DNA of 59,690 bases, counting the filler, from Jimgerdemannia flammicorona (taxonomy: Eukaryota), in the NCBI GenBank assembly GCA_003990765.1. It is 2 parts of 2 records of this genome, joined end to end, with 100 filler letters (N's around TTAATTAATTAA, not from the genome) between each part and the next. Parts side by side here need not be neighbours in the genome. Positions count along the whole stretch, not along the records: positions 29,901 to 59,690 come from RBNJ01000471.1; 1 more part is not named here. One strand, given 5' to 3'. A program made the translations under genes and the position numbers. Below, one piece after another: positions 18,254 to 59,690 of this stretch (the first letter of the stretch is position 1; every line of letters begins with the position of its first letter). The notes below the pieces were generated by a model that saw nothing but the letters and a program-made list of their open reading frames with translations, did no database searches and had not been told where the DNA came from.

Positions 18254-19821
18254 TATCATATAGTAGTCGCTGAGTCCTTCAAATATATCAGATTCTCTTC
18301 AAGATATATCTCTTAGACTAACTCAAGTTTGTTATAAGCAAGTTCTTATTGGAGTGCCTTCTTAAGATCTTATAGTCTTCAAACTTCTTATCTTTAAATT
18401 GTCTTGTTATCTCTTTAGATTGCTTATAAGGAATTGTGTATATTGTACTGAGTAGACTGACTTTATTTTAGAGGAAATAAGAGAGGTATTTATATAAAAT
18501 ATAATTCAATGGTTGCTAAGATATAAAGCTAAATATAAATTCCAATAACTAAAATAAAATACCAGGACAGAGAAAACTGCTAAGTTCCAGTATCAGTACA
18601 GATAGTTGCATAGAGTCAAGATGCTGGTATAATTCAGTGATATAGGAAAATAGTGCTGGAATAATTCAGTATCACATCAGAATACTGGTAGTGAAACAGC
18701 TGTTATACAGAAAAAGAGTGCTGATATAATTCAGTATAACCAAGAGACTTAGAGTAGAATATTCAAAACCATAGGGGCTTCATCCTCGTCAGAGGTCAGG
18801 ATGTCTTTGAAGGAGATGAGATCCACAAATATCTTGTCTATCTTGTGGCATAGATTGTATGTTTCACATATGTTGTGCAGGATAACATCATTGCTGATAA
18901 TATCATCACATTTGGCAGTGGCAGGAACAAGGAGATCTGGAGCTCTCCAGTCTATGAGGTTCTCTTCCATGAAATAGGGGACAAATGTAGGGTTTTGAGG
19001 AGGTCTAACCTGGATACTTGGGCCTTGGAATACTGAGATCAATCCTTGCAAGAATTGGTCTGGGTTGTCCTAGAGAATGGGATACCAGAAGTCTTCTATT
19101 TTATCACTATTAAGGGTGATAGTGGACTGGGCTTCTATAGCCACCCTGGCTTCTAGTGTATTGATACAGTGGTCTGATAGGTCTCTGAAGTCTGAGACTC
19201 TAACATACTCTAAGTTGGGGATTGACTATGATGCATGCTTGAAGATCTGATGAATCTTCTTAGCTATCCTTACTTCATGTATATCTATGAGAGTGGTATC
19301 TTGTAACTCTTGGAAACTGGCCTGTGGGAACTCCTGGCAGAGGAGGTTTCCTATCTCATACTCCTGCCATATTTGGAGGCATTCAGTAGCAATGGTGATT
19401 CTTATTTCTATTTCACAGTGGTAGAGGATATAATGATAAAGGTCACTAGTATCCAGGTTAACACTAGGAGTCCTTCTTAAGTGGGTCCTTATGGCTCTTC
19501 TGATGTCTTGGAACATCCTTTCTTCAACTAAAGTGCCTTAGTGGTTTCTTGACCTTGAGGTTTGGTGAGCAGCAGACATTTCATTTGTGATAAGTCTTTG
19601 AGCTATTTTGGGATTGGTGGGTCTTGTTGGTTGCTGCTACTGCAGTTCCTTGATTCTTCTTTTATATTTCTCAAGATATCTATACTGTGGTCATAATAAC
19701 TTACAGTTGGTCATTATTGCTCATCTTGTATACTATATGATCTTCTTGTACTCTGATCTGGTGGCTTATAAGGAAATACTGTCTTCTGTGCTGATATCAT
19801 CATTCTGGGGTCACCATTATA
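18254..19821 (-). repeat. 5' LTR of family A copy 1, containing a decayed LTR-ORF (18749-19579)
   Basis: Followed on the minus strand by ACT + T(A/G)GTGCTCATTGGC PBS; ORF pieces 19226-19516 and 18749-19051. Confidence 0.9.
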
Positions 19822-26997: not shown

Positions 26998-28344
26998 ATG
27001 TCCGACCCAACCCGTCTACAGCGCCTACTAGCCCGACTCAAGCCCTTCGAACACCTGCACAGTGCCCACCAAACTGAAATCTTGGCCTGGAAGAAAGATT
27101 TTTTGGAATATGACCAAGAACTTCGTGCTTGTCTTGACACCTTCGCCGTACCGCAGCTGGAGCCATACCTTGTCTGGATTCCACACGAAAAATTGGGTAA
27201 ATATTATGGTGGACTGAAACAACTTGCCAAAGGCGGGTTTGCCAAAGTTTACCAAGCGAATGTTTGGGCAAAGTCAGCATATTACAATGTGGCTGCTAAA
27301 GAATTGAAATTGTCGATGGTTGAAGAGGTGAGTTTCGGGTTGGTGTGATATATCCACTATTTTCCACACAATATTAATTACCGATAACCTTTATCCACTA
27401 ATAATTATAGTTAGTGCTGAATGTCTATTTGAGTCGCTGTGGAAATGACGCCAACAATGCCCCTACAATGGATATTGTCGCTGTGTCACGACACCCTGAA
27501 ACCAAAGAATATTTGATGATTATGCAATTTGCTGATATCGGCACTCTTGAGAAGCAGCCGTGCGACCAAGATGGTGATTGGTATACAGCTTTCACCTATG
27601 CTATAAAACTTTCCAGCCGCTTAGCCAGTCTCCACAATATGGGATTCTGCCATAAGGATCTCCACGCGGGAAACGTAGTATTCCACAAGTCTCATACCGC
27701 ACTCCTGATCGATGTCGGACTTAGTCAAGCTGTAGAAGATGTGAATTCCGAGAAAGGTGCCTACGGTCGGATTGCATACTTTCCTCCAGAGATCTTTAAG
27801 GGAGAACATTATACACAGAAATCAGACGTCTACTGCTTGGGAACCCTGTTGTGGCAGTTGATTGTCGGCGTTCCACCACAAGTCGACGCATCGGTAGCCA
27901 TCACCAGAAATCCTGATGGCCTTCGAGAGGAGTTAATCCCTAGTGCGCCAACAATGTTCAACGACATCATCCGAAGCTGCTGGCACATCAACCCCAACCA
28001 GCGACCGAGTGCTCTTGAAGTCCACCATCAATTGTTAGAATGTGCAGCTGGTTTAGTCAGCATTCCTTTTGTCTTGCGACCAAATATAGAAGATCAAATT
28101 TTAAGAGGGCTTGCAATTACATCTATACCTTTTTCACTCGAGATGCAATCGTTCATCGAGACAAGACGGGTCACCCATCAACAAGAGCTGGAATCTGCAA
28201 ACAGCGGCAACGTCTTCGAATTCATAGATGGACAGAGCACATGCAACACCGGGAGTAAATTTTACACACATTCACAACTCAAACAAATTACCAAAGAGCA
28301 CTCGCGATCGACCCTTATCACTCTTGTGCGACAACCAAATCAAG
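26998..28344 (+). CDS. Tyrosine-kinase-like (TKL) Ser/Thr protein kinase domain; exons 26998-27327 and 27411-28344; probably the N-terminal part of a kinase-LRR protein
   Basis: LAKGGFAKVY, VAAKEL, HKDLHAGN, LIDVGLS, YFPPE, SDVYCLG, CW...RPS motifs. Phase-0 GTGAGT...ACTAAT...TAG intron 27328-27410 joins the two ORFs in frame. Candidate donor G|GTTGGT at 28344/28345 (phase 1). Confidence 0.9.
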
Positions 28345-28645
28345 GTTGGTAGCATCACAGGTCATACAGTTATCCTTGTATATGATATTATATTTGTTAA
28401 CCAGCAGGCTTTTGTGTTCTTAACTTATGTCACAACGATTAGACTATGGTAGCATCAGAGGTAATGTTAGCAGGTCCCGAGATTGTTGACATTTGGTTTA
28501 TGCATATTAATTCTCGATTTGTGTTTAGAGAAGAGCATCCCGACGAATCACAACACATATATTATATCACATGAACTATTTTCTACTGTTCATATAATCA
28601 AAATCATGTTCTGTTTATGTTCGCTATATCTCTATTCATCTACAG

Positions 28646-29800: not shown

Positions 29801-29900
29801 NNNNNNNNNNNNNNNNNNNNNNNNNNNNNNNNNNNNNNNNNNNNTTAATTAATTAANNNNNNNNNNNNNNNNNNNNNNNNNNNNNNNNNNNNNNNNNNNN
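29801..29900. other. Assembly gap with artificial TTAATTAATTAA spacer (29845-29856)
   Basis: Ns flanking a palindromic 12-mer that gives stops in all six frames. Confidence 0.9.
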
Positions 29901-29914
29901 TTTTTTTTATAGGC

Positions 29915-31316
29915 CAATAGCATTATCTGCTATCTGAGATATCAGATCACAAAGTACCCACTTTACCCCCTGAGAAATGCTGTTTGGAGAAGAAAGTTCT
30001 CAAGAAACTCTATCATCTAATGGGGATACTGTATGGAAACATGTGGATGGAGAAATATGAAGACTACACCAAATTAGGAAGAAGGCTGAGGATTACATAA
30101 TGAAGGCACAGGCACTATAATGGAAAAATATGGAAAAGACCCACAAACCCCTGGAGATTATCAAGATAGGAGACAAAGTCCTAGTATATCAGAATATGGT
30201 AGAAGCCTCATAGTTATGAAAACTGGAGCCCAAGTGAGAAGGACCTTACCTTATGTAAGATATAAAAGGGACCACTTTTTGACTACAAAAACTCTCAGGC
30301 ACAATTATCCCTACTACCATCCATCAAAACTGACTCAAGAAGTATCATGACTAGTCAACAAAGTAATACTACTGCCCTCAGAATTACTAGTACTACTCAG
30401 TGAGTCATTGAAAGACAGTGGTGTTCTACTGAACCACCAATGATGGAAGAATCCTTTGACAGCATTCAGAGTATAGTATAAATACATCTGTCACAAATTT
30501 CATATTTCAAGGCCTACTAGAATCGAACTGAGTTCCAGGAATACTTCAAGTTGGGACAGCTACTGAATTCAACCCCAAAGATGGGAAAAGAAGACTAGAT
30601 CAGAGAATGTCAGCTCTCCTACACTCAGATCACAATTGTAAAAAAAGTGCACAAGTTATTTAAGGATGATGAGTTAGCCTTAGCCCATTTCCAAGGAGTA
30701 ACTCCAGGAGACTTTGAATATGTCAAGTAACAACATTAGAAGGACGTAATGATACAAATTGCACAATATAAGGAAATACAAATTGTAGAAGCCTGGGAAT
30801 TCAAGTAAATAGGATGCTCCTGAGATGAATCACCTATTTAGGAGGAAGATGTGATAGCTGATCTGAATTAGTAACATGAAACAGGGAAATTAGACATTTG
30901 ATCGCAGTACTTAAATCCAATTCCCAATATAGCTTAGCCTTATAAAAATAGCAGCCATATTCTGCAAAGTGCAGAAACTTTAATGTTTACAAAGATTTAA
31001 GAGATATTAGAATCTTCACAATCAGCAAAATCTTAGCAGATGTTAAAAGATTCAACATTTGTAAAATGAGTCATTACTTAGCCACCTTATAGCTAGCAAA
31101 ACTTGTATAAATAACCCAGTATCTTAGAGTAAATAAACCTCATATTGAAATAGTTCAAAAGTAAAGAGATAGCAAAGGAACTAGTAAGCCTGTGGGCAGA
31201 TACACTTCAAACTCACCCACCCCTGCATTCTAAGGACTCCAAGGAGTCAGAAAGATCAAGTATTTAAGATACAAAAATCCAACATACTTTCAAGACTAAG
31301 CATCCACTACATTATA
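29915..31316 (+). mobile_element. Gypsy family B remnant: integrase 3' end, PPT (30840-30849) and short ~470-bp LTR (30850-~31316)
   Basis: KLEPK*EGPY...DIKGTTF...LKKYH is homologous to family A integrase. Same PPT AGGAGGAAGA followed by TGTGA; LTR ends ...ccactacattata. Confidence 0.72.
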
Positions 31317-33625: not shown

Positions 33626-33826
33626 ATAATTTATATAATAAAATTTCTAATAGAATTTCTAGAGTAGTTATTATAATAGTGACTCTAGAATGATGACATC
33701 AGTACAGGAGACAGCCTTTCCTTGCAAGCCACCAGATCGGAGCACAAGAAGATCATATGGCATACAAGATGAGGAATGATGACCAACTGTGAGTCATTGT
33801 GACCACAGCACAAGTATCCTGAAGAA

Positions 33827-33833
33827 TATAAAA
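33827..33833 (+). promoter_or_regulatory. TATA box (TATAAAA) upstream of the LTR-internal ORF
   Basis: Present in all six family A LTRs, ~80 nt before an ATG in an A-rich context (AAACAAAATG). Confidence 0.55.
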
Positions 33834-33913
33834 GAAGGATCAAGAAACTGCAGTAGTAGCAACCAATAAGAACTACCAATCCCAAAATAGCTTAAAGACT
33901 TACTATAAACAAA

Positions 33914-34725
33914 ATGTCTGCTGCATGCCAAACCTCAAGGTCAAGAAATTACCAAGTATCTTGGTCGAGGAAAGGATGTTCCAAGACATCAGAAGAGCCA
34001 TGAGGACCCACTCAAGAAGGACTCCTAGTGTCAACCTGGGTACTGCAGACCCTTATCACTTCATTCTCTACTGCCATGAAATGGAAACAAGGATCACTAT
34101 TGCTACTGAATGCCTCCAAATGTGGCAGGAGTATGAAATAGGAAACCTTCTCTACTGGGAGTTCCCACAGGCCAGTACCCAAGAGCTACAAGATACCACT
34201 CCCATGGATATACACAAAACAAAGATAGCTAAGAAGATCCATCAGATCTTCAGGCATGTACCATGGTCAATCCCCAACTTGAAGTATGTTAGAGTCTCAG
34301 ACTTCAGAGACCTATCATCCTGCCATATCAATATACTAGAAGCCAAGGTGGCTATAGAAGCCTGGTCCACTATCACTCTCAACAGTGAAGAAGTAGAAGA
34401 CTTCTGGCACCCTATCCTTCAGGACATCCCAGACCAATTCCTGCAAGGATTGATCTCAGTATTCCGAGGCCCAAGCATCTGGGTTAGATCTCCCCAAGAC
34501 CCCATGTTTGTTCCTTATTTTGTGGAAGAGAACCTCATAGACTGGAGAGCTCCAGACCTTGTTTCCGATTTCCCCACCACAGCTAAACATGATGACATCA
34601 TTGGCGATGATGTCATCCTGTATGACATACGCGAAATGCATGACCTGTATGATGAATTCATGGATCTCATCTCCTTTAGTAATGATGATGATGAAGCCCC
34701 CATGGTCCTGAACTTTCTGCTCTAA
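33914..34725 (+). pseudogene. LTR-internal ORF of copy 2 5' LTR (1-bp deletion near 33956, otherwise open)
   Basis: Homologous over its whole length to the intact 278-aa ORF 56620-57456. Confidence 0.8.
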
Positions 34726-35136
34726 GTGCTTTGTTACACTGGATAATGCCAGCACCAGTATTCTCATGTAACACTAGATAATGCCAGCATCCTGAACCTG
34801 TACAACTATCAGTACCAACTCTGGAACTTAGTTGTTTTAGTTATTGGAATTTATATTTAGCTTTATATCTTAGCAACCATTGAATTATATTTTATATAAA
34901 TACCCCTCTTATTTCCTCTGAAATAAAGTTAGTCAACTCAGTGCAATATACACACTTTCTTGCAAATAATCTAAGAGATAACAAGACAGTTTAAAGATAA
35001 GAAGTTTGAGGACTATAAGACCTTGAGAAGGCACTCCAATAAGAACTTGCTTATAACGACTTGAGTTAGTCTAAGAGATATACCTTGAAGAGAATCTGGC
35101 ATATTTGAAGGACTCAGTGACCACTATGTGACAACT

Positions 35137-35153
35137 TGGTGCTCATTGGCTGG
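35137..35153 (+). promoter_or_regulatory. tRNA primer-binding site (TGGTGCTCATTGGCTGG), 3 nt after the LTR
   Basis: Starts TGG (complement of tRNA CCA); conserved at 53500 and ~18234-18250. tRNA species not assigned. Confidence 0.75.
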
Positions 35154-35253
35154 TGATTCAAGATGAATCCCTTACTTTTAAGCTGAAAAATGAATAACCC
35201 CCACAACAACTACTCTGACTACAAGAGTCACTCCTGCAAGAATTCAAGATAAG

Positions 35254-38200
35254 ATGGAAATGTATCCCCTTACATTCTATAGATATACTACTGAAGAGTC
35301 AATCCTGACCTTCATTGAAGACTTTGAACAATTTACTGCCATATGAGCCCTTGGTGTGGATGCTCAATTGGCCCTTCTACTAGTCAGCCTCAGTGGACCT
35401 GCCAGAGACAAGTTTAATGCAGCCACTATTGCTAGTGCTGATGCAGTCAAACTTACCAACATGAAGACCTTCCTCAGAACAACATATTATACTAAAGAGA
35501 TCAAGCAAGCTCTCAAGGATCAACTTAATACTATCTGCTAGGGACTTAGTGAAGATCCCAACTCATTCTATATCTGAATCTGCCACCAGATTGTCTTGGC
35601 TGGCTATGATGATGCCCTTAAGGAACAAATAGCAGATTCAACCTTCCTTAAAGGAGTTCACCTTGAAATTGCCTTAACAATCCAGTCTACCCCAGCTGCA
35701 CTGACCCTTGATCAGAAAGTGGTCTTTGCACAGAGATATTGGACTGCCAGACACCCTGCTGAACACTCAATAGAGAAAATAACTGGCATCAAGATGGAGC
35801 CATCAAAGCCAACTAGTATCTTACCTGCCACAGTTGTAAACAGACAACCAACCCCACCTATCCCCAAGACAGCCAAAGCTGATCCAGTGGAAGAACTCGC
35901 CAAGCAGTTTGCCGAGATGACTGCACACCTTGGTGATGTTATTAGAGAGGTCCGAAGCACTAACAGGAGACCAGTGCAGAGATTTGCAGCTACTACAGAA
36001 GAACACAATATCACATGCTTTAGATGCGGAGAAGAAGGCCACTATGCAAAGAGTTGCATGACTGAAATGAGATGCAAAGCCCAACCAAGCAATGCTAGCA
36101 GAACCAGAGAACAAACCAATGCAGTAGTTATTGAGGAGATTGGTGACACTGATGATGAAGAATACTACGAGGAGCTCGAATTCTACCCTGCTACTGAAGG
36201 TACCAGAACCCAGTCCAAGCCCTATGACAAGAAGAGCAACAGCAAGCCAGTTGGAAGACCAAAGAAGACTCCAGCTGTCACTATTCAAAGCAAGACCCAA
36301 CCCAAGGAGATTGATCAAGACATGGAGTTAGATGAAGCTACCTGCCAAATTATCGAAGGCACTACTCTAGTCTTAGAAGAAAGTGAGAGCAAGAAGGAAC
36401 AGAAGCTGTGCAAGACCAAGATCCACCAGTATGACATCTACAAGGACCTCAAGGAACAGAAGGTCAATGCCACTTTTGGACAGCTAGCTGAAGTCCCTGC
36501 CTTTAGATAGCAGTTGAGAGTAGGACTTGCAACTACTGCCAAGAATCAAGAGTACAAGATCATAGAAGCTCACAATGTACAAGAAGAATCTGAGAACTCA
36601 GGTGAAGAATCCGAAGACCAGCACAAGACATCAGCCTATACCCCCTGCCAGATTGAAGACTGTATCTTTGATGCCATCATTGATACTAGTGCTGGAGGAT
36701 ACCTCATGAGCAAGAAGGCAATTGAATGCCTAGGTTGGGACATTGAAGAGTCCACCAAGATGGTCTATATCACAGCAGATGGTACACAAGCTATCCCCCT
36801 TGGCAAAATCCGAGAAGTCCCCATCAAGATAGGAGGAGCTACCATCCCAGTAGACATGATTGTTACAAGCACCACCAACTATGACATCCTCATTGGCAAC
36901 CAATGGCTTCACAAGGCCAAGGCCATCATTGACCTCAATGCCCAGAAGATGCAGATCAACTACAGAGGAAGAAAGGTATGAGTTTCTATCAATGTCCACA
37001 AAGGAGTCCTGCCAGACATGGAGGAAAAAGATAAAGAAGACACAGAGGTCTTTATGCACTCAGTGAACAAGAATAAGAACAAGACATTCAAGCTCACAGA
37101 TGAGCAGTGGTATAACAAGATCATTGATGGGTATGCCCCTCAAGGAAGATGCCCCCATGGTACTAGAATGTACTGCTCTGAACACCTGAATGACTGCTGG
37201 TCCTGTATCAGTGAAGTCAGGAAAATCCACCAACAGAAACACAAGCAAGAAGCTGCTGAAGTAAAAAAGAAAGCTGAAGAAGATGACCACCCCCCAGAGC
37301 TTCAAGCTGACAGTGATGATGAGGAGGAACAAGAATCAGACATCACTCTCAAGGTTAAGAAGTTTCACCCTGAAGCCAAGATCCCAGAATACAAGACTGA
37401 AGGAGCCATAGGAATAGACCTTGCCAGCATCTAAGATGCTACCCTCAAACCACAGACCACCACCCTACTTGGCACTGGAATTGGAGTCAAGTTGCCAGAA
37501 AACCATGCTGGAATTATCAAGACCAGGAGCAGTCTGGCCAAAAGTGAAATCTCAGTTGAAGGAGGAGTAATTGACCCTAATTACACTGGTGAGATTTTTC
37601 TCATAGTCAGAAATCACAACCACACCACCCCCTTCAAAGTCAAGAAACATGACAGGATTGGCCAGATGCTAATTCATGAAATCAAAAAGTCCAAGATCAT
37701 AGAAGCCACTAAACTTATCAAGACCAAGAGAGGAGAATAAGGCTTTGGATCTACTGGAAGAGGAGCCTATGCCACCATCAAGATTACTAAACTTGAGCAT
37801 AGGAAAGACAAGGACCAGAACAAGTACACATATACCATTGGAGAAAACTTTCCCCTGGAGGAACAACTTCTCAAGATCCTGTACCAGAATGAAGGAGTAC
37901 TTGCTACAGACTTTAGGGATATCCACAATCAAGAACCCAAGTATTACCACGAAGTTGACACTGATGATACCAAGTCTATCTATCAGAAAGCCAGACCCAT
38001 ACCACCTGCCTACAGAGAGTGGCTGTGAGCCAAACTCAAGGAAATGGAAGAAGCCAGAATCATGAAGCAAGCTATCAGCCCCTGGGCCTCACCCATTGTC
38101 CTTGCCCTGAAGAAAGGAAGCAAGCCTGGAGAGTTTGTACCAAGACTCTGCATTGACTATAGAAAACTCAATGCCATCACCAAGAAGGATAGGCAGCTCT

Positions 38201-39279
38201 TGCCAAATATTCAAGAAATCCTTACCACCCTTGGAAGCAAAGCCAAATACTACACCACCTTGGATCTGTTCTCAGGCTTCCATCAGATCAGTCTCACTTA
38301 AGATGCTAGTGAGAAATCAACCTTCATCACACCTGATGCCACCTATATCTATCTGCGAATGCCATTTGGAATGTGCAATGCCCTAGCAAGTTTCCAGCAA
38401 ATAATGAACAGAGTCTTCAGCAATGAGATTGGAAAATGGCTCTTTGTCTATATTGATGATATGATCATCTTCAGCAATACTGCACGGGAACATATCAATC
38501 ACATACAGCTAGCCCTCAAGAGGCTCAAGGAGTATGACCTCTACATCAAGCCCAAGAAATACAAGTTTGTAGCTCAAGAAATCACCTACCTAGGACACCT
38601 TATCAACCAGACCAGAATCCATACAGACCCCATGAAGATCGAGGCTGTTGCAGCCTACCCAAGACCCAGAACAACCACAGAAGTCCATGCCTTCCTTGGA
38701 CTGGTCAGCTACTACAGAAGATTCATCAAAGGATACTCCAACATTGCAGCACCTATCTACGAACTACTGAAGAAGGAGACTAAATTCAAATAGACCAAGG
38801 AGTACCAAGAAATCTTCAATGAACTCAAGACTAGGTTGACCCAAGCATTCATCCTCAGAAGACCAGACTGGAACCTAGAATTCATCCTGCAGACAGACGC
38901 GAGTGCTATAGGACTTAGAGCAGTCCTAGCTCAGAAGAAAGATAAACATGAATATATCATCTCCTATGCAAGCTGAGATACCCGCAGAGCAGAACAGAAC
39001 TACGAGTCATACAAGCTTGAATACTTAGCAGTAGTTTGGACAGTAGACAAGTTCCACTACTACTTAGCCAGAAAACACTTCACTATTCAAATGGACCATT
39101 CCACTCTTGCCTGGCTATTCCACACTCTGAACCCCAAAGGAATATATGCCAGATGGATCTACAGGCTGCAAGAGTATGACTGTACTGTCAAGCACCACTC
39201 AGGAAAGACCAATACCAATGCCAATGCACTCTCAAGAACACCCTGAAACACTCCCATCAAGACTACTCAATATGAATAA
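35254..39279 (+). pseudogene. Single-frame gag-protease-dUTPase-RT-RNase H polyprotein with premature stops
   Basis: ORF pieces 35356, 35596, 36514, 37018, 37492, 38044 and 38359 are all in one frame. CFRCGEEGHYAKSC knuckle, AIIDT(S/G)A protease, dUTPase motifs, WASPIV/LCIDYRKLN/LDLFSGFHQ/MPFG/YIDD, LQTDAS, NANALSR. Confidence 0.92.
37345..37758 (+). pseudogene. dut: Trimeric dUTPase domain within pol, between protease and RT
   Basis: GAIGIDL, TRSSLA, GGVIDP(N/D)YTGEI, DRIGQM, RGE*GFGSTG (motifs 1-5). Also present in copies 1 and 3. Confidence 0.92.
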
Positions 39280-40798
39280 GGAGCTATACTATGGATTAAT
39301 CAGCTATCTTGGATAGTAGAAGATGCCCAACTACCTCAAACCCTGGATAATCACCATCATCAACTGGACTTAGAAATAGTTTGAATTAGACAACACTACA
39401 CTCAGAAAAGGAGGAAAGTTAGTAATATCTAAACATAAGAAGTATCAAGTAATGAAGGAAGTACATGAGCAAGAACACTTAGAAGGAACCAACACATATG
39501 ACAAGGTAAGAAGAACCATATGGTGGCCCAAGATGGAAGAAGACCTGTACCAATTTGTCAAAAAGTGTGACAAGTGCCAAAAACAGAAACAAGATCAGTA
39601 AGACCAGACACCCAGGTCATCAAGAATTGAGTCTATCCTCTTCCACCACATCATAATGGATATCATTAGACCACTACCAGTAACACTATCAGGAAACTGC
39701 TATATTATAGTTATTGTAGACCTCTTCACTAAATGGATAGAGGCAGGAGCATTACAAGAAGTCAATGCCCTCTCTATAGCTGACTTCCTATACTGAGAAA
39801 TCATCTGCTGCTATAAGACACCAAAGCAAATCACAACAGACCGTGGTACAGAATTTGTCAATAGATTCTATGAGATAACGTATCAGAAATACAAGATCCA
39901 GCACATCAAGACCACTGTGTACCACCCTCAAGGAAATGGACAGACAGAGAGAACCAACAAGACCCTCAAGAACATCCTAGCAAAGATCTCAGAGACATAT
40001 GAGAATTGGGATAACTATCTCCTGACTGCCCTCTCTGTTCTACGAGATATACAGTCACAGAGTACACATTTTACCCCAAGAGAGCTGCTCTTTGGAGAAG
40101 AAGATTCTGATGGAACCTCAGCCACAAATCTAGACCTAACTTAGAAATGGATTGATGCAGAAATCCAGAGACCACACCAAATCAGGAAGAAGGCTGAAGA
40201 TTACATCACCAAGTCACAAGCGCTGACAAGGAAGAATGCGGAAAAGAATCACAAGGTCCTAGAATCCATCTGAATCAGAGAAAAGGTTCTACTGTATTGA
40301 AATATGTTAGAAGCCTCATGGTCATGAAAACTGGAGCCCAAATGGGAAGGACCCTTCTATGTGCAAGATATCAAGGGAACTACCTTCTGGCTTAGAAAAA
40401 TCTCAGGGACCATACTGCCTACCACAGTACATAGGAACAGACTTAAGAAGTACCATGAACCTATACAAGAGAAGCAAAATGTGATGACCGCCTGTGAGAT
40501 TCTAGTCCGTGAATCATAACAGCATGTCCTGTGACCAGCAGGCTATCTGTCTGGACCATTCTCTAAGGGATACAACACTGCTAACTACTCATCTGTGAGA
40601 CTTTCACAGTCAGAGAAGTTCAAACCATCAACTGATTGATCAAGATCAGAATCAGGCCCTTGCTCTATATGAAGGGAGCAACCCTTCACTATTATGCCAA
40701 AATACAAAGGGAAGATGCCAGCCCATAAACACCAGTTTTTGACCCCTTGCCAGAGGTTATGGGATCAGCAAATTTTTCAGGACTGGACCAATGAATAA
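39272..40798 (+). pseudogene. Integrase in a separate (+1) reading frame, with premature stops; no chromodomain
   Basis: Starts MNKELYY. HHCC zinc finger, DII(G/R)PLP, ITTDRGTEF, YHPQGNGQTER, KWEGPF. Ends ...WTNE* just before the PPT. Confidence 0.88.
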
Positions 40799-40822
40799 GG
40801 ATACTCAGGAAGATTCTTATTC

Positions 40823-40832
40823 AGGAGGAAGA
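40823..40832 (+). promoter_or_regulatory. Polypurine tract AGGAGGAAGA
   Basis: Directly precedes TGTAAC of the 3' LTR; identical in copies 1 and 4 and in family B. Confidence 0.88.
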
Positions 40833-42294
40833 TGTAACAGTGACTCCAGAATAATGACATTAGTACAGGAGACAGCCTTTTCTTACAAGCCACCAGATTG
40901 GAGCACAAGAAGATCATACAGCATATGAGATGAGCAATGATGACCAACTGTGAGTCATTGTGACCACAGCACAAGCATCCTGAAGAATATAAAAGAATGA
41001 TCAAGGAACTGTAGTAGCAGCAACCAACAAGAACCACCAATCCCAAAATAGCTCAAAGACTTACCATAAACAAAATGCCTGCTGTATGCTAAACCTCAAG
41101 GTCAAGAAATCACCAAGGTATCTCAGTTGAGGAAAGGATGTTCCAAGACATCAGAAGAGCCATGAGGACCTACTCAAGAAGGACTCCTAGTGTCAACCTG
41201 GGTACTGCGGATCCTTATCACTTCATTCTCTACTGCCATGAAATGGAAACAAGGATCACTATTGCTACTGAATGCCTCCAAATGTGGCAGAAGTACGAAA
41301 TAGGAAACCTCCTCTGCCAGGAGTTCTCACAGACCAGTACCCAAGAGCTACAAGATGCCACTCCCATGGATATATATGAAATAAGGACAGCTAAGAAGAT
41401 CTATCAGATCTTTAGGCATGCATCATGGTCGATTCCCAACTTGGAGTATGTTAGAGTCTCAGACTTCAGAGACCTATCATCCCACCATATCAATGCACTA
41501 GAAGCCAGGGTGGCTACAGAAGCCCAGTCCACTATCACCCTCAACAGTGAAGAAGTAGAAGACTTCTGGCACTCTATCTTTCAGGACAATCCAGACCAAT
41601 TCCTGCAAGGATTGATCTCAGTATTCCAAGGTCCAAGCATCTGGGTTAGATCTCTCCAAGACCCCACATTTGTTCCTTATTTTGTAGAAGAGAACCTCAT
41701 AGACTGGAGAGCTCTAGACCTTGTTCCCAATTTCCCCACCACAGCTAAATGTGATGATGTCATCAGTGATGACATCATCCCACATGACATATGCAAAATG
41801 CATGACCTATATGATGAATTTGCAGATCTCATCTCCTTCAGTGATGAGATGATGAAGCCCTCATGGTCCTGAACTTTCTGCTCTAAGTTTTTTATTACAC
41901 TGGATAATGTCAGCACCAGTATTCTCATATAATACTGGATAATGCCAGCATTCTGAACCTGTACAACCATCAGTACTAACTCTGGAACTTAGTAGTTTTA
42001 GTTATTGGAATTTATATTTAGCTTTATATCTTAGCAACCATTGAATTATATTTTGTATAAATATTCCTCTTATTTCCTCTGAAATAAAGTCAGTCAATTC
42101 AGTACAATATACACACTTTCTTGCAAGCAATCTAAGAGATAACAAGACAGTTTAAAGATAAGAAGTTTGAGGACTATAAGACCTTGGGAAGGCACTCCAA
42201 TAAGAACTTGCTTATAATGACTTGAGTTAGTCTAAGAGATATACCTTGAAGAGAATCTGGTGTATTTGAAGAACTCAGTGATCACTATGTAATA
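40833..42294 (+). repeat. 3' LTR of family A copy 2, with LTR-ORF remnant (41075-41886)
   Basis: Direct repeat of 33672-35133, same length. Confidence 0.92.
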
Positions 42295-51695: not shown

Positions 51696-54600
51696 TGTAA
51701 CAGTGATCTCAGAGTGATAATATCAGCACAAGAGACAGTCTTTTCTTGCAAGCCACCAGATCAGAATACAAGAAGATCATATGGCATAACTCAGGCTATA
51801 AGATAAGTAATGATGACCAACTGTGAGTTATTGTGACCACAGTTCAGGTATCTTGAGAAATATAAAAGAAGGATTAAGGAACTATAATAGTAGAAACTCA
51901 ACAAAACCCACCAATCCCAAAATAGCTCAAAGACTTACTATAAATAAAATGTCTGCTGCTCACCAAACCTCAAGGTCAAGGAATCACCAAGGTACCTTAG
52001 TTAAAGAAAGAATATTCCAAGACATCAGAAGAGCCATGAGGACTCATATAAGAAGGACTCTTAGCCTTAACCTGGATACTGCAGATCCTTATCACTTTAT
52101 CCTCTACTATTGTAAGATAGAAACAAGGATCACCATTGCTACTAAATGCCTCCAAATATGGCAGAAGTACAAAATAAGAAACCTTCTCTGCTGGAAGTTC
52201 CCACAGATCAGTCTCTAAGAGTTACAAGATACTACTCTCATGGATATATAAGAAGTAAGGATAGCTAAGAAGATTTATCAGATCTTCAGGCATATATTAT
52301 AGTTGATCTCTAACTTAGAGTATGATAGAGTCTCAGATTTCAGAGATCTGTCAGTCTACCATATTAATGCACTAGAAGCCAGGGTGGCTATAGAAGCCTA
52401 GTCTACTATCACTCTCAATAGTGATGAAGTATAAGACTTCTGACATTCCATCCTCCAGAACAACCCAGATCAATTTCTGCAAGGATTGATCTCAGTATTC
52501 CAAGGCCCAAGTATTTAGGTTAGACCTCCCCAAGACCCCACATTTATTCTCTATTTTGTAGAAGAGAACCTCATAGACTGGAGAGCCCCAGATCTTCTTG
52601 TTCCCACTGCTACCAAATGTGATGACATCATCAGTAATGATGTCATCTCATATGACATGCATAAAGCATACAAAATATATAATCTATGTGATAAGATCGA
52701 AATATTCATAGACCTCATCTCCTTTGAGGACAGTAATGATGAGGATGAAGCCCCCATAGTCCTAAACATTTTGCTCTAAGTCCCTTAGTTATACTGAATT
52801 ATACCAGTATCCTTTTCCTATATAATAGCTGTTCCTTCACTGACATTCTGACCTTGTGACTCAGAATTATTTTAGCACTATTTTCCTATATCACCAAAAT
52901 TATACCAGCATCCTGAATCTATACAACCATCTGTGCTGATCTTGAAGCTTAGCAGTTTTCTATATTCCAGCATTTTATTGGTTATTGGAATTTATATTTA
53001 GCTTTATATCTTAGCAACTATTGAATTATATTTTGTATAAATACCCTTCTTATTTCCTCTAAAATAAAGTCAGTCAAGTTTACTTATATACAATCTCTTG
53101 CAAGCAATCTAAGAGATATCAAGACAGTTTAAAGATAAGAAGTTTGAGAATTATAAGACCTTGGGAAGGTACTCTAATAAGAACTTGCTTATAAAAAACT
53201 TATAGTTAGTCTAAAAGATACACCTTGAAGAGAATCTGATATATTTGAAGGACTCAATACCCACTATATAACAATATATATAATATAGTCCTCTCAGTCA
53301 AGTTTACTTACATATACTTCCTTGCAAGCAATCTAAAGAGATAATAAGATAGTTTAAAGATAAGAAGTTTGAAGACTATAAGATCTTAGAAAGGCACTCC
53401 AATAAGAACTTACTTATAATAAACTTGAGTTAGTCTAAGAGATACACCTTGAAGAGAATCTGAGTATTTGAAGGACTCAGCAACCACTATGTGACAACTT
53501 GGTGCCCATTAGCTGGTGATTCAAGATGAATCTCTCACTTTCAAGCTGAAAAACAAACAACTACCACAATAACTACTTTGACTATAAGAGTCATCCTTAT
53601 AAGAATTCAAGACAAGATAGAAATGCATCCCTCCACATTCTATAGATATACTACTGAAGAGTTAATCCTGACCTTCATTGAAGACTTTGAACAATTTGCC
53701 GCCATATGAGCCCTCAATGTGAATGTACAATTGGCCCTTCTATCAGTCAGCCTCAGAGGACCTGCTAGAGAAAAGTTCAATGCAGCCATTATTGCTGATG
53801 CTAGTGCAGCCAAACTTGCCAACATGAAGACCTTTCTCACAATAACATACTATACTGAAGAGATTAAGCAAGCTCTCAATAATTAACTCAATACTATCTG
53901 CCAGAGACTCAGTGAAGATCCCAACTCATTCTATATCTAAATCTGCCATCAGATTATCTTGACTAGCTATGATGACCACTTCAAGGAACAAATAGTGGAT
54001 TCAACCTTTCTCAAAGAAGTTCACCCTGAAATTGCCCTAGTAATCTGATCTACCCCAGCTACACTGACCCTTGATCAGAAAGTGGTCTTTGTACATAGAT
54101 ATTGGACTGCCAGACACCCCACTGAATACTCAATGGAGAAAATAACTAGCATCAAGATAGAGCCATCAAAGCCAACTAGTATCATACCCACTACAGTTGT
54201 AAACAGACAACCATCTCCTCCTACCCCCAAGGCAACTAAAGTTGACCCTGTGGAGGAACTTGCCAAGCAGTTCACTAAGATAACTGCATACCTTGGTGAT
54301 GTTGTTAGAGAAGTCTGAAGCACCAACAAGAGACCAGTACAGAGATTTGCAGCTACTACAGAAAAATGCAATATCACATGCTTTAGATATAGAGAAGAGG
54401 GCCACTATGCAAAGAGTGCATGACTGAAATAAGATACAAAGCCCAACCAAGCAATGCTAGCAGAACCAGAGAACAAATCAATACAGTAGTCATTGAGGAG
54501 ATTGGTGATACTGATGATGAAGAATACTATGAGGAGCTCGAATTCTACCCTACTACTGAAGGTACCAGAACCTGGTCCAAGCCCTATGACAAGAAGAGCA

Positions 54601-56172
54601 ACAGCAAGCTAGTTGGAAGACCAAAGAAGACCCCAGCTATCACTATCCAAAATAAGACCCAACTCAAGGAGATTGATCAAGACATGGAGTTAGAGAAGGC
54701 TGTCTACCAAATTATTGAAGATACTACTCCAGTCTCAGAAGAAAGTGAAAGTAAGAAGGAACAGAAGCTGTGCAAGACTAAGATTCACCAGTATGATATC
54801 TACAAGGACCTCAAGGAACAAAAGGTCAATGCTACTTTTGGACAACTAGCTGAAGTCTCTGCCTTCAGACAGCAGTTGAGAGTAAGACTTGTAACTACTA
54901 TTAAGAATCAAGAGTATAAGATTGTAGAAGCTCACAATATATAAGAAGAATCTGAAGACCAGTACAAAACATCAGCCTACACCCCATGTCAGATTAAAGA
55001 TTGTGTCTTTGATACCATTATTGATACTAATGCTGGAGGATGCCTCTTGAGTAAGAAGGCAATTGACTACCTAGGCTGGAACATTGAAGAGTCCACCAAG
55101 ATGGTCTATGTCACAGTAGATAGTACACAAGCTACCCTCCTTGGCAAAATCTGAGAAGTCTCCATCAAGATAGGAGGAGCTACCATCCCAGTAGATGTGA
55201 TTGTTACAAGCACCACCAACTATAACATCCTCATTGGCAACTAATGGCTTCACAAGACCAAGACTATCATTGACCTTAATGTCCAAAAGATGCAGATCAA
55301 CTATAGAAGAAGAAAGGTATGAGTCTCTATCAATGTCTACAAAGGAGTTCTATCAGACATGGAGAAAGGAGATAAAGAGGACACAGAAGTCTTCATGCAC
55401 TCAGTGAACAAGAATAAGAACAAGACATCCAAGCTCACAGATAAGCAGTGGTATAACAAGATCATTGATAGCTATGCCCCTCAAGAAAGATGCCCCCATA
55501 GTACTAGGATGTACTGCTCTGAACACCTGAATGACTGCTGGTTCTGTATCAGTGAAGTCAGAAAAATCTGCCAACAGAAGTATGAGTAAGAAGCTGCTGA
55601 AGTAAAAAGGAAAGCTGAAGAAGAAGACCAGCCTCTGGAGCTGCAAGCTGACAGTAATGATGAGGAGGAACAAGAACCAGACATCACCCTCAAGGTCAAG
55701 AAGTTTTACTCTAAAGCCAAGATCCCAGAATATAAGACTGAAGGAGCCATAGGAATGGACTTTGCCAGCATTCAAGATACTACCCTCAAACCACAGACCA
55801 CCACCCTACTTAGCACTGGAATTGGAGTCAAGTTACCAGGGAACTATGCTGGAATTATCAAGACCAGGAGTAGTCTTGCCAAAAGCAAAATCTCAGTTAA
55901 AGGAGGAGTAATTGACCCTGATTACACTGGCAAGATCTTCCTTATAGTCAGGAATTACAACTCCACCACCCCATTCGAAGTTAAGAAGTATAACAAGATT
56001 GACCAGATGCTGATCTATGAAATCAAGAAGTCCAAGATCACTGAAGCCATCAAACTCATCAAGACCAAGAGAGGAGAATAAGGCTTTGGATCTACTAGAA
56101 GAGGAGCCTATGCCACCACTAAGATTACCAAACTTGAGCACAAGAAAGATAAGAATCAGAATAAGTACATAT
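51696..56172 (+). mobile_element. Family A copy 3 (5' LTR with duplicated 3' end, PBS, gag-protease-dUTPase), interrupted by copy 4
   Basis: Starts TGTAACAGTG at 51696. LTR-ORF remnant 51949-52779, LTR ends at 53273 and again at 53496, PBS at 53500. Homology stops at ...gtacatat 56172. Confidence 0.9.
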
Positions 56173-59100
56173 TGTCACGTAGTGGTCGCTGAGTCCTTCA
56201 AATATGCCAGATTCTCTTCAAGGTGTATCTCTTAGACTAACTCAAGTTGTTATAAGCAAGTTCCTATTGGAGTGCCTTCCCAAGGTCTTATAGTCCTCAA
56301 ACTTCTTATCTTTAACTGTCTTGTTATCTCTTAGATTGCTTGCAAGGAAGTGTGTGTATTGTACTGAGAAGACTGACTTTATTTCAGAGGAAATAAGGGA
56401 GGTATTTATACAAAATATAATTTAATGGTTGCTAAGATATAAAGCTAAATATAAATTCCAATAACTAAAACTACTGAGTTCCAGGGCTGGCATTATTTAG
56501 TACCACATCAAAATACCGGTGCTGGAACAATTTCGCATCACCTCAGAATACCGGTGCTGGCATTATCCAGTGTTATATGAGAATACTAGTACTGGTATTA
56601 TCCAGTGTAACAAAGAACTTTAGAGCAGAAAGTTCAGGACCATGGGGGCTTCATCATCATCATCATCACTGAAGGAGATGAGATCTGCGAATTCGTCATG
56701 TAGGTCATGCGTCTCGCGTACTTTGTCATTTTCGCATGCCTCGATGTTGCGCAGGATGATGTCATCGATGACGTCATCACGTTCGGGTGTGGCGGGAAAA
56801 TTGGGAACAAGGTCTGGAGCTCTCCAGTCTATGAGGTTCTCCTCCACAAAATAGGGGACAAATGTGGGGTCTTGGGGGGATCTAACCCGGATGCTTGGGC
56901 CTTGGAATACTGAGATCAATCCTTGCAGGAATTGGTCTGAGTTGTCCTGAAGGATAGGGTGCCAGAAGTCTTCTACTTCTTCACTGTTGAGGGTGATAGT
57001 GGACTGGGCTTCTGTAGCCACCCTGGCTTCTAGTGCATTGATGCGGCGAGATGACAGGTCTCTGAAATCTGAGACTCTAACATACTCCAGGTTGGGAATC
57101 GACCATGGTGCATGCCTGAAGATCTGATGGATCTTCTTAGCTGTCCTCATTTCACGTATATCCATGGGAGTGGCATCTTGTAGCTCTTGGGTGCTGGCCT
57201 GTGGGAACTTCCGGTAGAGGAGGTTTCCTATTTCGTACTCCTGCCACATTTGGAGGCATTCAGTGGCGATGGTGATCCTTGTTTCCATTTCATAGCGGTA
57301 GAGGATGAAGTGATAGGGGTCTGCAGTACCCAGGTGGATACTAGGAGTCCTTCTTGAGCGGGTCTCCATGGCTCTTCTGATGTCTTGAAACATCCTTTCC
57401 TCGACCGAGATACCTTGATGATTCCTTGACCTTGAGGTTTGGCAGGCAGCAGGCATTTTGTTTGTGGTAAGTCTTTGAGCTATTTTGGGATTGGGGTTCT
57501 TGTTGGCTGCTGCTACTGCGGTTCCTTGGTCCTTCTTTTATATTCTTCAGGATGCTTGTGCTGTGGTCACAATGACTCACAGTTGGTCATCGTTGCTCAT
57601 CTTGCATGCCATATGATCTTCTTGTACTCTGATCTGGTGGCTTGTAAAGAAAGGCTGTCTCCTGTGCTGATGTCATCATTCTGGGGTCACCATTACATCT
57701 TCCTCCTGAATAAGGATCTTCCTGAGTGTCCTTATTCATTGGTCCAGTCCTGAAAAATTTGCTGATCCCATAACCTCTGGCAAGGAGTCGAAAACTGGTG
57801 TTTATGGGCTGGCGTCTTCCTTTTGTATTTTGGTGTGATGGTGAAGGGTCGCTCTCTTCATATAGAGCAAGGGCCTGATTCTGATCCTGACCAATCAGTT
57901 GATGGTTCGAACTCCTCTGACTGCGAAAGTCTCATGGATAAGTAGTTGCCAGTGCCGTATCCCTTAGAGAATGGTCCAGACAGATAGCCTGCTGGTCACG
58001 GGACATGCTGTTATGATTCGCAGACTAGAACCTCACGGGCGGTCATCACATTTTGCTTCTCTTGTATAGGTTCGTGGTACTTCTTGAGTCTGTTCCTATG
58101 TACCATGGTAGGCAGTATGGTCCCTGAGATTTTTCTAAGCCAGAAGGTAGTTCCCTTGATATCTTGCACGTAGAAGGGTTCTTCCCATTTGGGCTCCAGT
58201 TTTCATGACCATGAGGCTTCTACCATATTTCGATACAGCAGAACCTTTTCTCCAATTCGGATGGGTTCTAGGGCCTTGTGATTCTTTTCCGCATTCTTCC
58301 TTGTCAGGGCTTATAACTTGGTGATGTAATCTTCAGCCTTCTTCCTGATTTGGTGTAGTCTCCGGATCTCTGCATCAATCCATCTCCAGGTTAGGTCTAG
58401 ATTTGTGGCTGAGGTTCCATCAGAATCTTCTTCTCCAAAGAGCAGCTCTCTTGGGGTAAAATGTGTGCTCTGTGACCGTATGTCTCGTAGGACAGAGAGG
58501 GCAGTTGGGAGATAATTATCCCAATTCTCATATGTCTCTGAGATCTTTGCTAGGATGTTCTTGAGGGTCTTGTTGGTTCTTTCTGTCTGTCCATTTCCTT
58601 GAGGGTGGTATGCGGTGGTCTTGATGTGCTGGATCTTGTATTTCTGGTACATTATCTCATAGAATCCATTGACAAATTCTGTGCCATGGTCTGTTGTAAT
58701 TTGCTTTGGTGTCTTGTAGCGGCAGATGATTTCTCGGTGTAGGAAATCGGCTATAGAGAGGGCATTGGCTTCTTGTAATGCTCCTGCCTCTATCCATTTG
58801 GTGAAGAGGTCTACAATAACTATAATATAGCGGTTTCCTGATAGGGTTACTGGTAGTGGTCCAATGATATCCATTGCAATGTGGTGGAAGGGGATAGGCT
58901 CAATTCTTGATGATCCGGGTGCCTGGTCTTGCTGATCTTATTTCTGTTTTTGGCACTTGTCACACCCTTTGACAAATTGGCGCAGGTCTTCTTCCATTTT
59001 GGGCCACCACATGATTCTTCTTGCCTTGTCGTATGTGTTGGTTCCTCCTAAGTGTCCTTGCTCGTATACTTCCTTCATTACTTGATACTTCTTGTGTTCG

Positions 59101-59690
59101 GGTATTACTAGCTTTCCTCCTTTTCTGAGTGTAGTGTTGTCTAATTCAAACTGTTTCCAAGTCCGGTTGATGATGGTGATTGTCCAGGGTTCGAGGTGGT
59201 TGGGCATCTTCCGCTGCCCAAGGTAGCTGATTAATCCATAGTATAGCTCCTTATTCATGTTGAATAGTCTTGATGGGGATGTTTCGGGGTGTCCTTGAGA
59301 GTGCATCGGCATTGGTATTGGTCTTTCCTGAGCGGTGCTTGACAGTACAGTCATATTCTTGCAGTCTGTAGATCCATCTGGCATATATTCCTTTGGGGTT
59401 CAGAGTGTGGAATAGCCAGGCAAGAGCAGAATGGTCTGTCTGAATAGTGAAGTATTTTCCAGCTAGGTAGTAGTGGAACTTGTCTACTGCCCAAACTACT
59501 GCTAAGCATTTAAGCTTGCATGACTCGTAGTTCTGTTCTGCTCCACGGGTACCTCAGCTTGCGTAGGAGATGACATATTCATGTCCATCTTTCTTCTGAG
59601 CTAGGACTGCTCCAAGTCCTATAGCACTTGCATCCGTCTGCAGGATGAATTCTAGGTTCCAGTCTGGTCTTCTGAGGATGGGCACTTGGG
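56173..59690 (-). mobile_element. Family A copy 4 (least mutated): 3' LTR 56173-57697, PPT 57698-57707, integrase and RNase H; runs off the window
   Basis: Intact TG...CA termini (TGTAATGGTG...CACTACGTGACA) and many CpGs retained. Integrase ORFs 58311-58874 and 58938-59384. Confidence 0.93.
56620..57456 (-). CDS. Intact 278-aa orphan protein encoded entirely inside the LTR; acidic C-terminus; function unknown
   Basis: Open ATG-to-TAA frame within LTR 56173-57697, with TATAAAA at 57536-57542. Homologues in the five other family A LTRs share start, C-terminal region and mostly frame-preserving length. Confidence 0.85.
   Translation of the reverse strand: MPAACQTSRSRNHQGISVEERMFQDIRRAMETRSRRTPSIHLGTADPYHFILYRYEMETRITIATECLQMWQEYEIGNLLYRKFPQASTQELQDATPMDIREMRTAKKIHQIFRHAPWSIPNLEYVRVSDFRDLSSRRINALEARVATEAQSTITLNSEEVEDFWHPILQDNSDQFLQGLISVFQGPSIRVRSPQDPTFVPYFVEENLIDWRAPDLVPNFPATPERDDVIDDIILRNIEACENDKVRETHDLHDEFADLISFSDDDDDEAPMVLNFLL

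Follow-up and report, generated by a model that had tools for sequence, protein, structure and literature searches.

A probable accessory gene within the long terminal repeats of a dUTPase-bearing Ty3/Gypsy retrotransposon family from the fungus Jimgerdemannia flammicorona

Complete genes inside long terminal repeats (LTRs) are, to our knowledge, known mainly from a few retroviruses. Mouse mammary tumour virus (MMTV) carries sag, a superantigen gene encoding a type II membrane glycoprotein, in the U3 region of its betaretrovirus LTR, and in lentiviruses (nef) and foamy viruses (bel/bet) an accessory frame that starts in the internal region extends into the 3' LTR. Retrotransposon LTRs are regarded as control regions without coding function and are masked by annotation pipelines. 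Here we present an analysis of an open reading frame (ORF) that lies within every full-length LTR of a Ty3/Gypsy retrotransposon family in DNA from Jimgerdemannia flammicorona (assembly GCA_003990765.1). The stretch analysed, hereafter the window, comprises 59,690 nucleotides, made up of parts of two records joined by 100 filler letters, with positions 29,901 to 59,690 coming from RBNJ01000471.1. We consider it very likely that the frame is a real, selected gene resident in the LTR, and on balance the whole is best explained by a protein-coding accessory gene that a dUTPase-bearing Ty3/Gypsy family carries in its LTR.

The available text of the sources on LTR retrotransposons places their additional ORFs (aORFs) in the internal region (PMC7264820); examples are Ogre ORF1, the antisense ORFs of Grande, RIRE2 and Retand, Boty, and CERV of Cer1 (PMC7264820, PMC10309623), of which CERV serves genomic-RNA export (PMC10309623). 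Fungal Ty3/Gypsy elements bearing a dUTPase have also been described, e.g. PosPlaTy3-5 of Postia placenta (PMC2864245). The literature searched, which included the accessible portions of PMC10787394, PMC6431247, PMC1560396 and bioRxiv 10.64898/2026.05.04.722472 and left most subscription journals outside, yielded no LTR-resident protein gene in an LTR retrotransposon, and the matches on LTR-encoded genes were retroviral (MMTV and others) or irrelevant. The first-pass annotation of this DNA, which had proposed an orphan gene in each LTR of a Gypsy family, regarded a match to an already described LTR-encoded family as grounds for abandoning the proposal; none was found in that literature.

An open reading frame within the LTRs

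Comparison of the interval 56173-57697 with the window by blastn returned six full-length LTRs, 1.46-1.58 kb long and 76-100% identical, together with one 188-bp fragment. Every full LTR (6/6) holds a sense-oriented frame of 271-278 codons that lies within the LTR limits. The frame is open in one copy of the six, that of LTR A (56173-57697, minus strand; 1525 bp, TG..CA), which is the least decayed and retains 32 CpG dinucleotides. Here the ORF occupies 56620-57456 (minus strand; 837 nt, 278 codons plus TAA), corresponding to LTR positions 242-1078 of 1525. The copies in LTRs D (18749-19579, minus), E (11498-12328, minus) and F (51949-52779, plus) each extend for 831 nt from ATG to TAA and contain three, eight and seven internal stops, respectively. 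Those in LTR B (40833-42294, plus) and LTR C (33672-35133, plus) measure 812 nt; in the former, CAA>TAA has turned codon 6 into a stop and a net 1 nt is missing near the end, and in the latter 1 nt is deleted near the start. All lesions in the broken copies are transition-made stops or 1-nt deletions. Thus the spans of 831 and 837 nt given by the first-pass annotation are exact and its placement of the ORF within all six LTRs stands, with the reservation that only copy A is open.

The LTR limits were set from the flanks and from a six-way alignment, and it was confirmed in this way that they are fixed, as had been claimed, by a polypurine tract (PPT) followed by TG, by CA followed by a primer binding site (PBS), and by 4-bp target duplications. 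The 5' ends read TG in A, B, E and F and the 3' ends CA in A, C and F; through decay, TA stands instead at the 5' ends of C and D and at the 3' ends of B, D and E. The PPT, aggaggaaga, directly precedes the TG of A (57698-57707, minus strand, abutting the LTR), B and E, and is decayed before F; the PBS, TGGTGC(C/T)CATT..., starts 3 nt past the LTR end in C, D and the fragment. LTRs C and B are the 5' and 3' LTRs of one element, with target duplications TTAT/TTAT, and LTRs D (18254-19821, minus) and E (11002-12570, minus) those of another, with CTAC/CTAT; each pair flanks ~5.7 kb of internal sequence. LTR A is the 3' LTR of an element that leaves the window at its right end. The LTR end is joined to the same PBS in ten contigs of one soil DNA run, and words from the LTR occur mostly in soil metagenome runs. 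Because the sense frame lies between the TG and CA ends of the LTR, reverse transcription copies the gene to both ends of new insertions.

LTR F (51696-53273, plus) has a decayed PPT-like stretch at its left, and the internal region of the family is absent there. It is followed by 35 nt and then by the 188-bp fragment (53309-53496, plus), a duplicate of the LTR 3' end, which in turn leads into the PBS and gag of a further copy; the region 51696-53496 may reflect a tandem or recombined arrangement. No clean solo LTR was found within the window.

A frame of 278 codons was reached in 0/2000 dinucleotide-preserving shuffles of LTR A (mean 80, maximum 217). The GC content of the ORF by codon position is 0.56/0.38/0.57, a pattern that the window's integrase and kinase ORFs share and the flanking parts of the LTR do not, and the third-position value (GC3) of 0.57 compares with 0.46-0.51 in the integrase ORFs of the element. 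No match to the ORF family was detected in the window beyond the six LTRs. Since the internal region already has its own gag with a CCHC knuckle, followed by protease (PR), dUTPase, reverse transcriptase (RT), RNase H (RH) and integrase (IN), the LTR-borne frame is an extra one. It showed no similarity by blastp to two gag pieces of the element (E 0.12 and 0.22), though it might conceivably be a far-diverged gag duplicate.

Evidence for selection on the frame, and its relatives

An element inserts with two identical LTRs, so that the differences within a pair are post-insertion decay; they were used here as the record of neutral decay, and differences between pairs were taken as changes in the active lineages. 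Across the pairs C/B and D/E, 196/262 post-insertion changes are C>T or G>A, with the C>T changes found mostly at CpA (61) and CpC (39). The two members of a pair differ by 7-15%, varying with the LTR region, and the observed/expected ratio of CpG is 0.41 in A and 0.02-0.13 in the other copies. The decay spectrum of the inserted copies resembles that of repeat-induced point mutation (RIP-like), in agreement with the earlier statement that this genome heavily mutates its repeats; CpG is nearly gone from the old copies.

Inside the ORF, 10/12 gap blocks are multiples of 3, vs 3/18 elsewhere in the LTR (Fisher p=5e-4, the blocks not being strictly independent events), and each of the two exceptions is confined to a single member of the C/B pair. 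ORF lengths are 837 (A), 831 (D/E) and 831 (F) nt; as copies B and C, at 812 nt, each carry one private frame-breaking loss, their ORF presumably measured 813 nt before insertion, and all lengths are then multiples of 3. The alignment likewise reproduces the first-pass observation of 1-bp indels in the leader upstream of the ATG and of frame-keeping indels in the acidic tail.

D and E have 11 stops between them, which coincide at a single codon, 118, where the changes differ (TAG vs TGA), and the stop of B and the frameshifts of B and C are private to a single LTR. Because no lesion is common to the two LTRs of either C/B or D/E, both paired elements most likely inserted with an open frame. 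Subfamily-wide frameshifts, which had been put forward as a sign that the frame is not maintained, are absent from the window.

The substitutions were then compared by their effect on the protein. Between elements, as judged from inferred pre-insertion states, there are 28 synonymous and 25 non-synonymous differences, vs 47 and 90 in within-pair decay (odds ratio 0.47, p=0.021), so that the between-element ratio of non-synonymous to synonymous change is about half of that in the neutral control for the two pairs in the window. As far as the window reaches, the first-pass condition of a ratio near 1 thus also comes out in favour of the proposal. Either alternative reading frame gives the opposite picture, with odds ratios of 2.2 and 2.1. 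Furthermore, between-element differences fall on codon positions 1/2/3 in the numbers 12/10/31, vs 53/32/52 for decay (binomial p=2e-4 vs one third; Fisher p=0.014). At the level of sequence comparison, these results support the view that purifying selection has maintained the frame in the active lineages, with copies decaying once inserted. The coding constraint proposed in the first-pass annotation is in this way upheld by indels in multiples of three, by the synonymous and third-position excess between elements, and by distant homologues.

These homologues are few. Word-seeded searches of 5.8 billion clusters gave 12 proteins at E<=1e-3 (5 in an initial round), and a profile search of 1.84 billion representatives gave 5. 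They all come from metagenomes, where their contigs measure 0.6-4.8 kb, and bear either no name or the label "hypothetical protein"; 0 have a Pfam domain. The close relatives, at 59-93% identity, match the window copies. The distant relatives (P0009-P0013, P0015 and P0016) are 19-45% identical and have in common an MPx start as well as the core motifs EYEI, HQxFRH, LQD and F.GPxI, and P0010 and P0012 additionally keep the tail motifs DLIxF and PxVLNF. One distant cluster has 6 members at an identity of at least 90%, which suggests several copies. A family of this depth would be hard to square with a chance frame. No longer fused forms were seen among 1130 longer candidates, although this is weak evidence. 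Scans of viral contigs and of prokaryote genome contigs revealed no related locus, and the sole locus from the metagenome contigs, L001, was judged spurious, its translation having stops around the short match.

Expression layout, product and origin

Candidate signals flank the ORF on both sides. In LTR A, the TATA-like box TATAAAAG (57535-57542, minus) starts 86 nt before the ATG, where the first-pass annotation had noted such a box at about 80 nt, and is the candidate promoter of the ORF. The leader between the two contains no other ATG, and the context of the ATG is A-rich. Upstream of TATAAAAG lie TGACATCA and the heptamer TGAGTCA (57573-57579, minus), which we take to be AP-1/Gcn4-like and which is intact in A, B and C and transition-decayed in D, E and F. 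Downstream of the stop, an AT-rich block with TATATA-like runs (56370-56478, minus), the most conserved block of the LTR, is a candidate poly(A) signal and/or second promoter. It includes TATAAATA (56403-56410, minus) and, 27 nt further on, the AATAAA (56378-56383, minus) that had also been noted, after which ~205 nt remain to the LTR end. TATAAAAG, TATAAATA and AATAAA occupy aligned columns in 6/6 copies.

Between the stop and this block, at 56480-56619 (minus), there are short repeats (roughly ACTGGATAATGCCAGCAC...) that differ in number between subfamilies, and most of the LTR indels that are not multiples of three fall in this stretch. Contig joints at 56464-56622 were considered as possible splicing and rejected, as they correspond to the subfamily length differences in this post-stop repeat region.

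It is plausible that these parts form a promoter-ORF-poly(A) expression cassette, and, as the first-pass annotation proposed, even a solo LTR might act as one. The layout we somewhat favour has the ORF as its own cassette in U3, using the 3'-end signal of the LTR, with the genomic RNA starting after TATAAATA. In this arrangement the promoter made up of TGAGTCA and TATAAAAG, 86 nt before the ATG and with an AUG-free leader, would drive the ORF, and the transcript would end at the AT-rich TATATA...AATAAA signal. The genomic RNA would begin just downstream of the ORF, at or after TATAAATA, leaving Gag with a short leader, and the gene would also form part of the genomic RNA, at its 3' end, as does sag in MMTV.

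The same gene could be laid out differently, with TATAAAAG as sole promoter, a U3 of ~190 bp and the ORF in a ~1.1-kb R region. This is the layout implied by the first-pass annotation, and we regard it as possible, if doubtful. It is suggested by the presence of one TATA-like box with TGACATCA and TGAGTCA before the ORF and of one signal of the efficiency-element/AATAAA type after it. The 3'-end signals of yeast include a TATATA-type efficiency element, and TATAAATA, 27 nt before AATAAA, could belong to a fungal element of this type rather than to a promoter. The gene would then stand at both ends of the genomic RNA, and it is equally doubtful that short transcripts stopping at the poly(A) signal of the 5' LTR serve as its mRNA and read-through transcripts as genomic RNA. 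However, gag would lie behind an upstream ORF of 278 codons whose start context is good, in a leader of ~1.4 kb, and translation past a long upstream ORF is very inefficient by cap-dependent scanning. An R region of ~1.1 kb, and a poly(A) site skipped at 1.1 kb from the cap, would both be unusual as well.

The product of ORF A is predicted to be a protein of ~32.5 kDa with a pI of 4.7. Its charge is unevenly laid out: residues 1-45 are basic (pI 11.5) and residues 216-278 acidic (pI 4.05), with the core between them, residues 46-215, predicted to be helical in an AlphaFold2 (AF2) model. The acidic tail, modelled at low confidence, carries a DLISF motif and the C-terminal PMVLNFLL. Readings of the tail as a SUMO-interaction, LC3-interaction, nuclear-export or dileucine motif were weighed and set aside. 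No hydrophobic anchor is present, the maximum 19-residue Kyte-Doolittle mean being 0.43; the usual threshold for a membrane segment is 1.6.

That the protein is an orphan, as first proposed, is supported. Pfam gave 0 families for the window protein at E<=0.01, and on 10 family members at E<=1 only ATG5_HBR, in 2/10 (best E 0.088); PDB sequences gave no match at E<=10; and the best ESM Atlas score was 0.83, a lead only, with one row, at 0.81, being a Mucoromycota cluster. The AF2 model is weak, with a mean pLDDT (predicted local distance difference test) of 33.9 from 8 sequences and of 53.0, at a pTM (predicted template modelling score) of 0.48, from 10. Foldseek on the PDB with this model gave a best E of 1.2, the VIA wide structural search a best Z of 4.0, which is under the level common for helical models, and no DNA-binding fold was recognised in it. 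These failed fold searches do not show a new fold.

A tentative suggestion, drawn from the charge layout and the position of the gene alone (a basic N-terminus, a helical core, an acidic disordered tail and short hydrophobic motifs), is that the product might be a trans-acting nuclear regulator for the family, acting in LTR transactivation, in relief of silencing or in the handling of element RNA. The first-pass annotation had proposed a transactivator or anti-silencing factor from the acidic/hydrophobic tail. It is a further step, and in our judgement an unlikely one, that every LTR, solo LTRs included, is an autonomous gene, with a single promoter, orphan ORF and terminator, for a family-specific factor that acts in trans as a transactivator or against repeat silencing, and that dead elements and solo LTRs make up a dispersed reservoir of helpers for the few intact elements; if true, this would be an accessory-gene strategy of LTR retrotransposons not met in the literature searched, and would give an early-diverging fungus a retrovirus-like layer of regulation. 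The orphan family can be tested for transposon activation or for escape from repeat-directed mutation and silencing, and the likely host group, Mucoromycota-type fungi, has repeat-rich genomes.

Several observations weigh against a selected and expressed LTR gene. Five of the six copies are dead. The selection tests comprise two element pairs and 53 between-element differences, with a p of ~0.02 for the comparison of non-synonymous with synonymous change, and the inferred pre-insertion states are blurred where CpG sites have decayed in parallel in the two members of a pair. Between elements, the nucleotide divergence of the ORF (7.0%) is about that of the leader (7.2%) and the 3' part (6.2%). 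The flanking motifs are AT-rich and decay little under C>T mutation, so that their conservation proves little. No transcript, start or poly(A) site was seen, 0 of the listed runs being on record as RNA and contigs being unable to show RNA ends. The relatives are called ORFs, biased to intact copies, and are known from proteins alone and not as LTR-borne. Finally, there is no recognisable domain, the structure model is weak (mean pLDDT 53), and any function is a guess. One run, X11, is RNA by guess only; its contigs cover the LTR and leave most internal bins without cover, a contrast that contig depth cannot turn into a ranking of the parts, and they pass through both LTR ends into unrelated sequence, with no bearing on expression.

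With these points in mind, the origin of the frame can be weighed. A captured host gene, or a piece of one, might travel in the LTR as a passenger that does nothing for the element. The orphan product without a domain typical of transposable elements, a GC3 somewhat over that of the integrase ORFs, and distant homologues known without genomic context would all suit a passenger. We nevertheless consider it improbable: the frame is present in 6/6 LTRs of subfamilies that stood ~7% apart before decay and has been kept by indels in multiples of three, and in the active lineage a useless LTR gene should have decayed. The relatives, moreover, are few and derived from metagenomes only, the 6-member distant cluster suggests several copies, and the window holds no paralogue outside the LTRs. 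Most improbable of all is a relic or chance ORF whose conservation is a by-product of constraint on regulatory DNA of the LTR, for although the five broken copies, the divergence equal to that of the rest of the LTR and the lack of expression support would fit it, its length is beyond any of the shuffles, its gap blocks keep the frame apart from private exceptions, the excess of third-position and synonymous differences between elements turns into its opposite when either alternative frame is read, the start along with the core motifs is retained in homologues of 19-45% identity, the tail motifs also being retained in two, and all its breaks are post-insertion.

The host element and comparison with known accessory genes

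The family that carries the gene is a Ty3/Gypsy (Metaviridae) LTR retrotransposon with the order gag-PR-dUTPase-RT-RH-IN, an assignment based on the paired LTRs, target duplications, PBS, PPT and the position of the integrase after RT. In the C-B element, the internal region (35134-40832, plus) contains gag with its CCHC knuckle, protease, dUTPase, RT, RNase H and integrase, and Pfam matches at 35578-40141 come in the order zf-CCHC, aspartyl protease, dUTPase, RVT_1, RT_RNaseH, Integrase_H2C2 and rve. The dUTPase, which lies between protease and RT, was found (Pfam E 3.7e-19 and 1.3e-23) in 35134-40832 and also in 12571-18253 and 53497-56172. No chromodomain was detected among 19 scanned ORF pieces of the C-B internal region.

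The internal region of the A element (57698-59680, minus) corresponds to C-B internal positions 3717-5699 at 92% identity and holds the zinc-binding and core domains of integrase. On its other side, the A element meets the truncated further copy (53497-56172, plus), which comprises PBS and gag-PR-dUTPase, internal positions 1-2698. The two are in opposite orientation and abut at the dUTPase-RT junction of the truncated copy (56173/56172; internal position 2698), and the A element appears to have inserted into, and interrupted, the 53497-56172 copy.

Elsewhere in the window, 29936-30350 weakly resembles the integrase portion of the family internal region (72% identity) and is probably a relic of another Gypsy element; it adjoins two 44-base runs of N, at 29801-29844 and 29857-29900. 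A separate ORF at 27411-28352 (plus), open for 313 codons, has a protein kinase domain of the Tyr/Ser-Thr type (Pfam E 1.4e-25), and the Atlas clusters closest to it are of Mucoromycota kinases (score 0.99). This match, along with the soil occurrence of the LTR words, points to a soil-dwelling host of the Mucoromycota type, as a lead only.

Among described elements, PosPlaTy3-5 is close in backbone, the dUTPase between protease and RT being one of the arrangements in the available part of its description, where no LTR-resident ORF is mentioned (PMC2864245). The aORFs of LTR retrotransposons, so far as the accessible text of their sources goes, resemble the present gene in being orphan, family-specific proteins that are kept across copies and have mostly unknown roles, and the frame reported here is similarly present in 6/6 copies with coding-type conservation. 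It differs from them in lying inside the LTR itself and not in the internal region, a distinction drawn from their descriptions and not from sequence comparison.

The retroviral accessory genes offer a parallel in position. The nef and bel/bet frames likewise share sequence with U3, but they only overlap the LTR, whereas the fungal ORF starts and stops inside it. MMTV sag is alike in that both are complete sense ORFs inside the LTR, present at both element ends, and accessory in that they are not needed for gag-pol chemistry. The products are nonetheless dissimilar: Sag is a membrane glycoprotein of an infectious mouse retrovirus, whereas the fungal protein has no hydrophobic segment, and with 0 Pfam families and a hydrophobicity well short of an anchor it is not a member of the Sag family. 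The fungal element is also a Ty3/Gypsy element without env, in which the U3 placement of the gene is putative.

The case reported here is a probable retroelement accessory gene in the LTR rather than in the internal region, in a fungal Ty3/Gypsy element. Such a placement would imply that LTR length can conceal coding capacity, that each insertion would deliver two copies of the gene, and that solo-LTR recombination need not remove it. In the comparison with sag, nef and bel/bet, it also raises the prospect that fungal Ty3/Gypsy elements may have evolved retrovirus-style accessory genes of their own, independently of the retroviruses.

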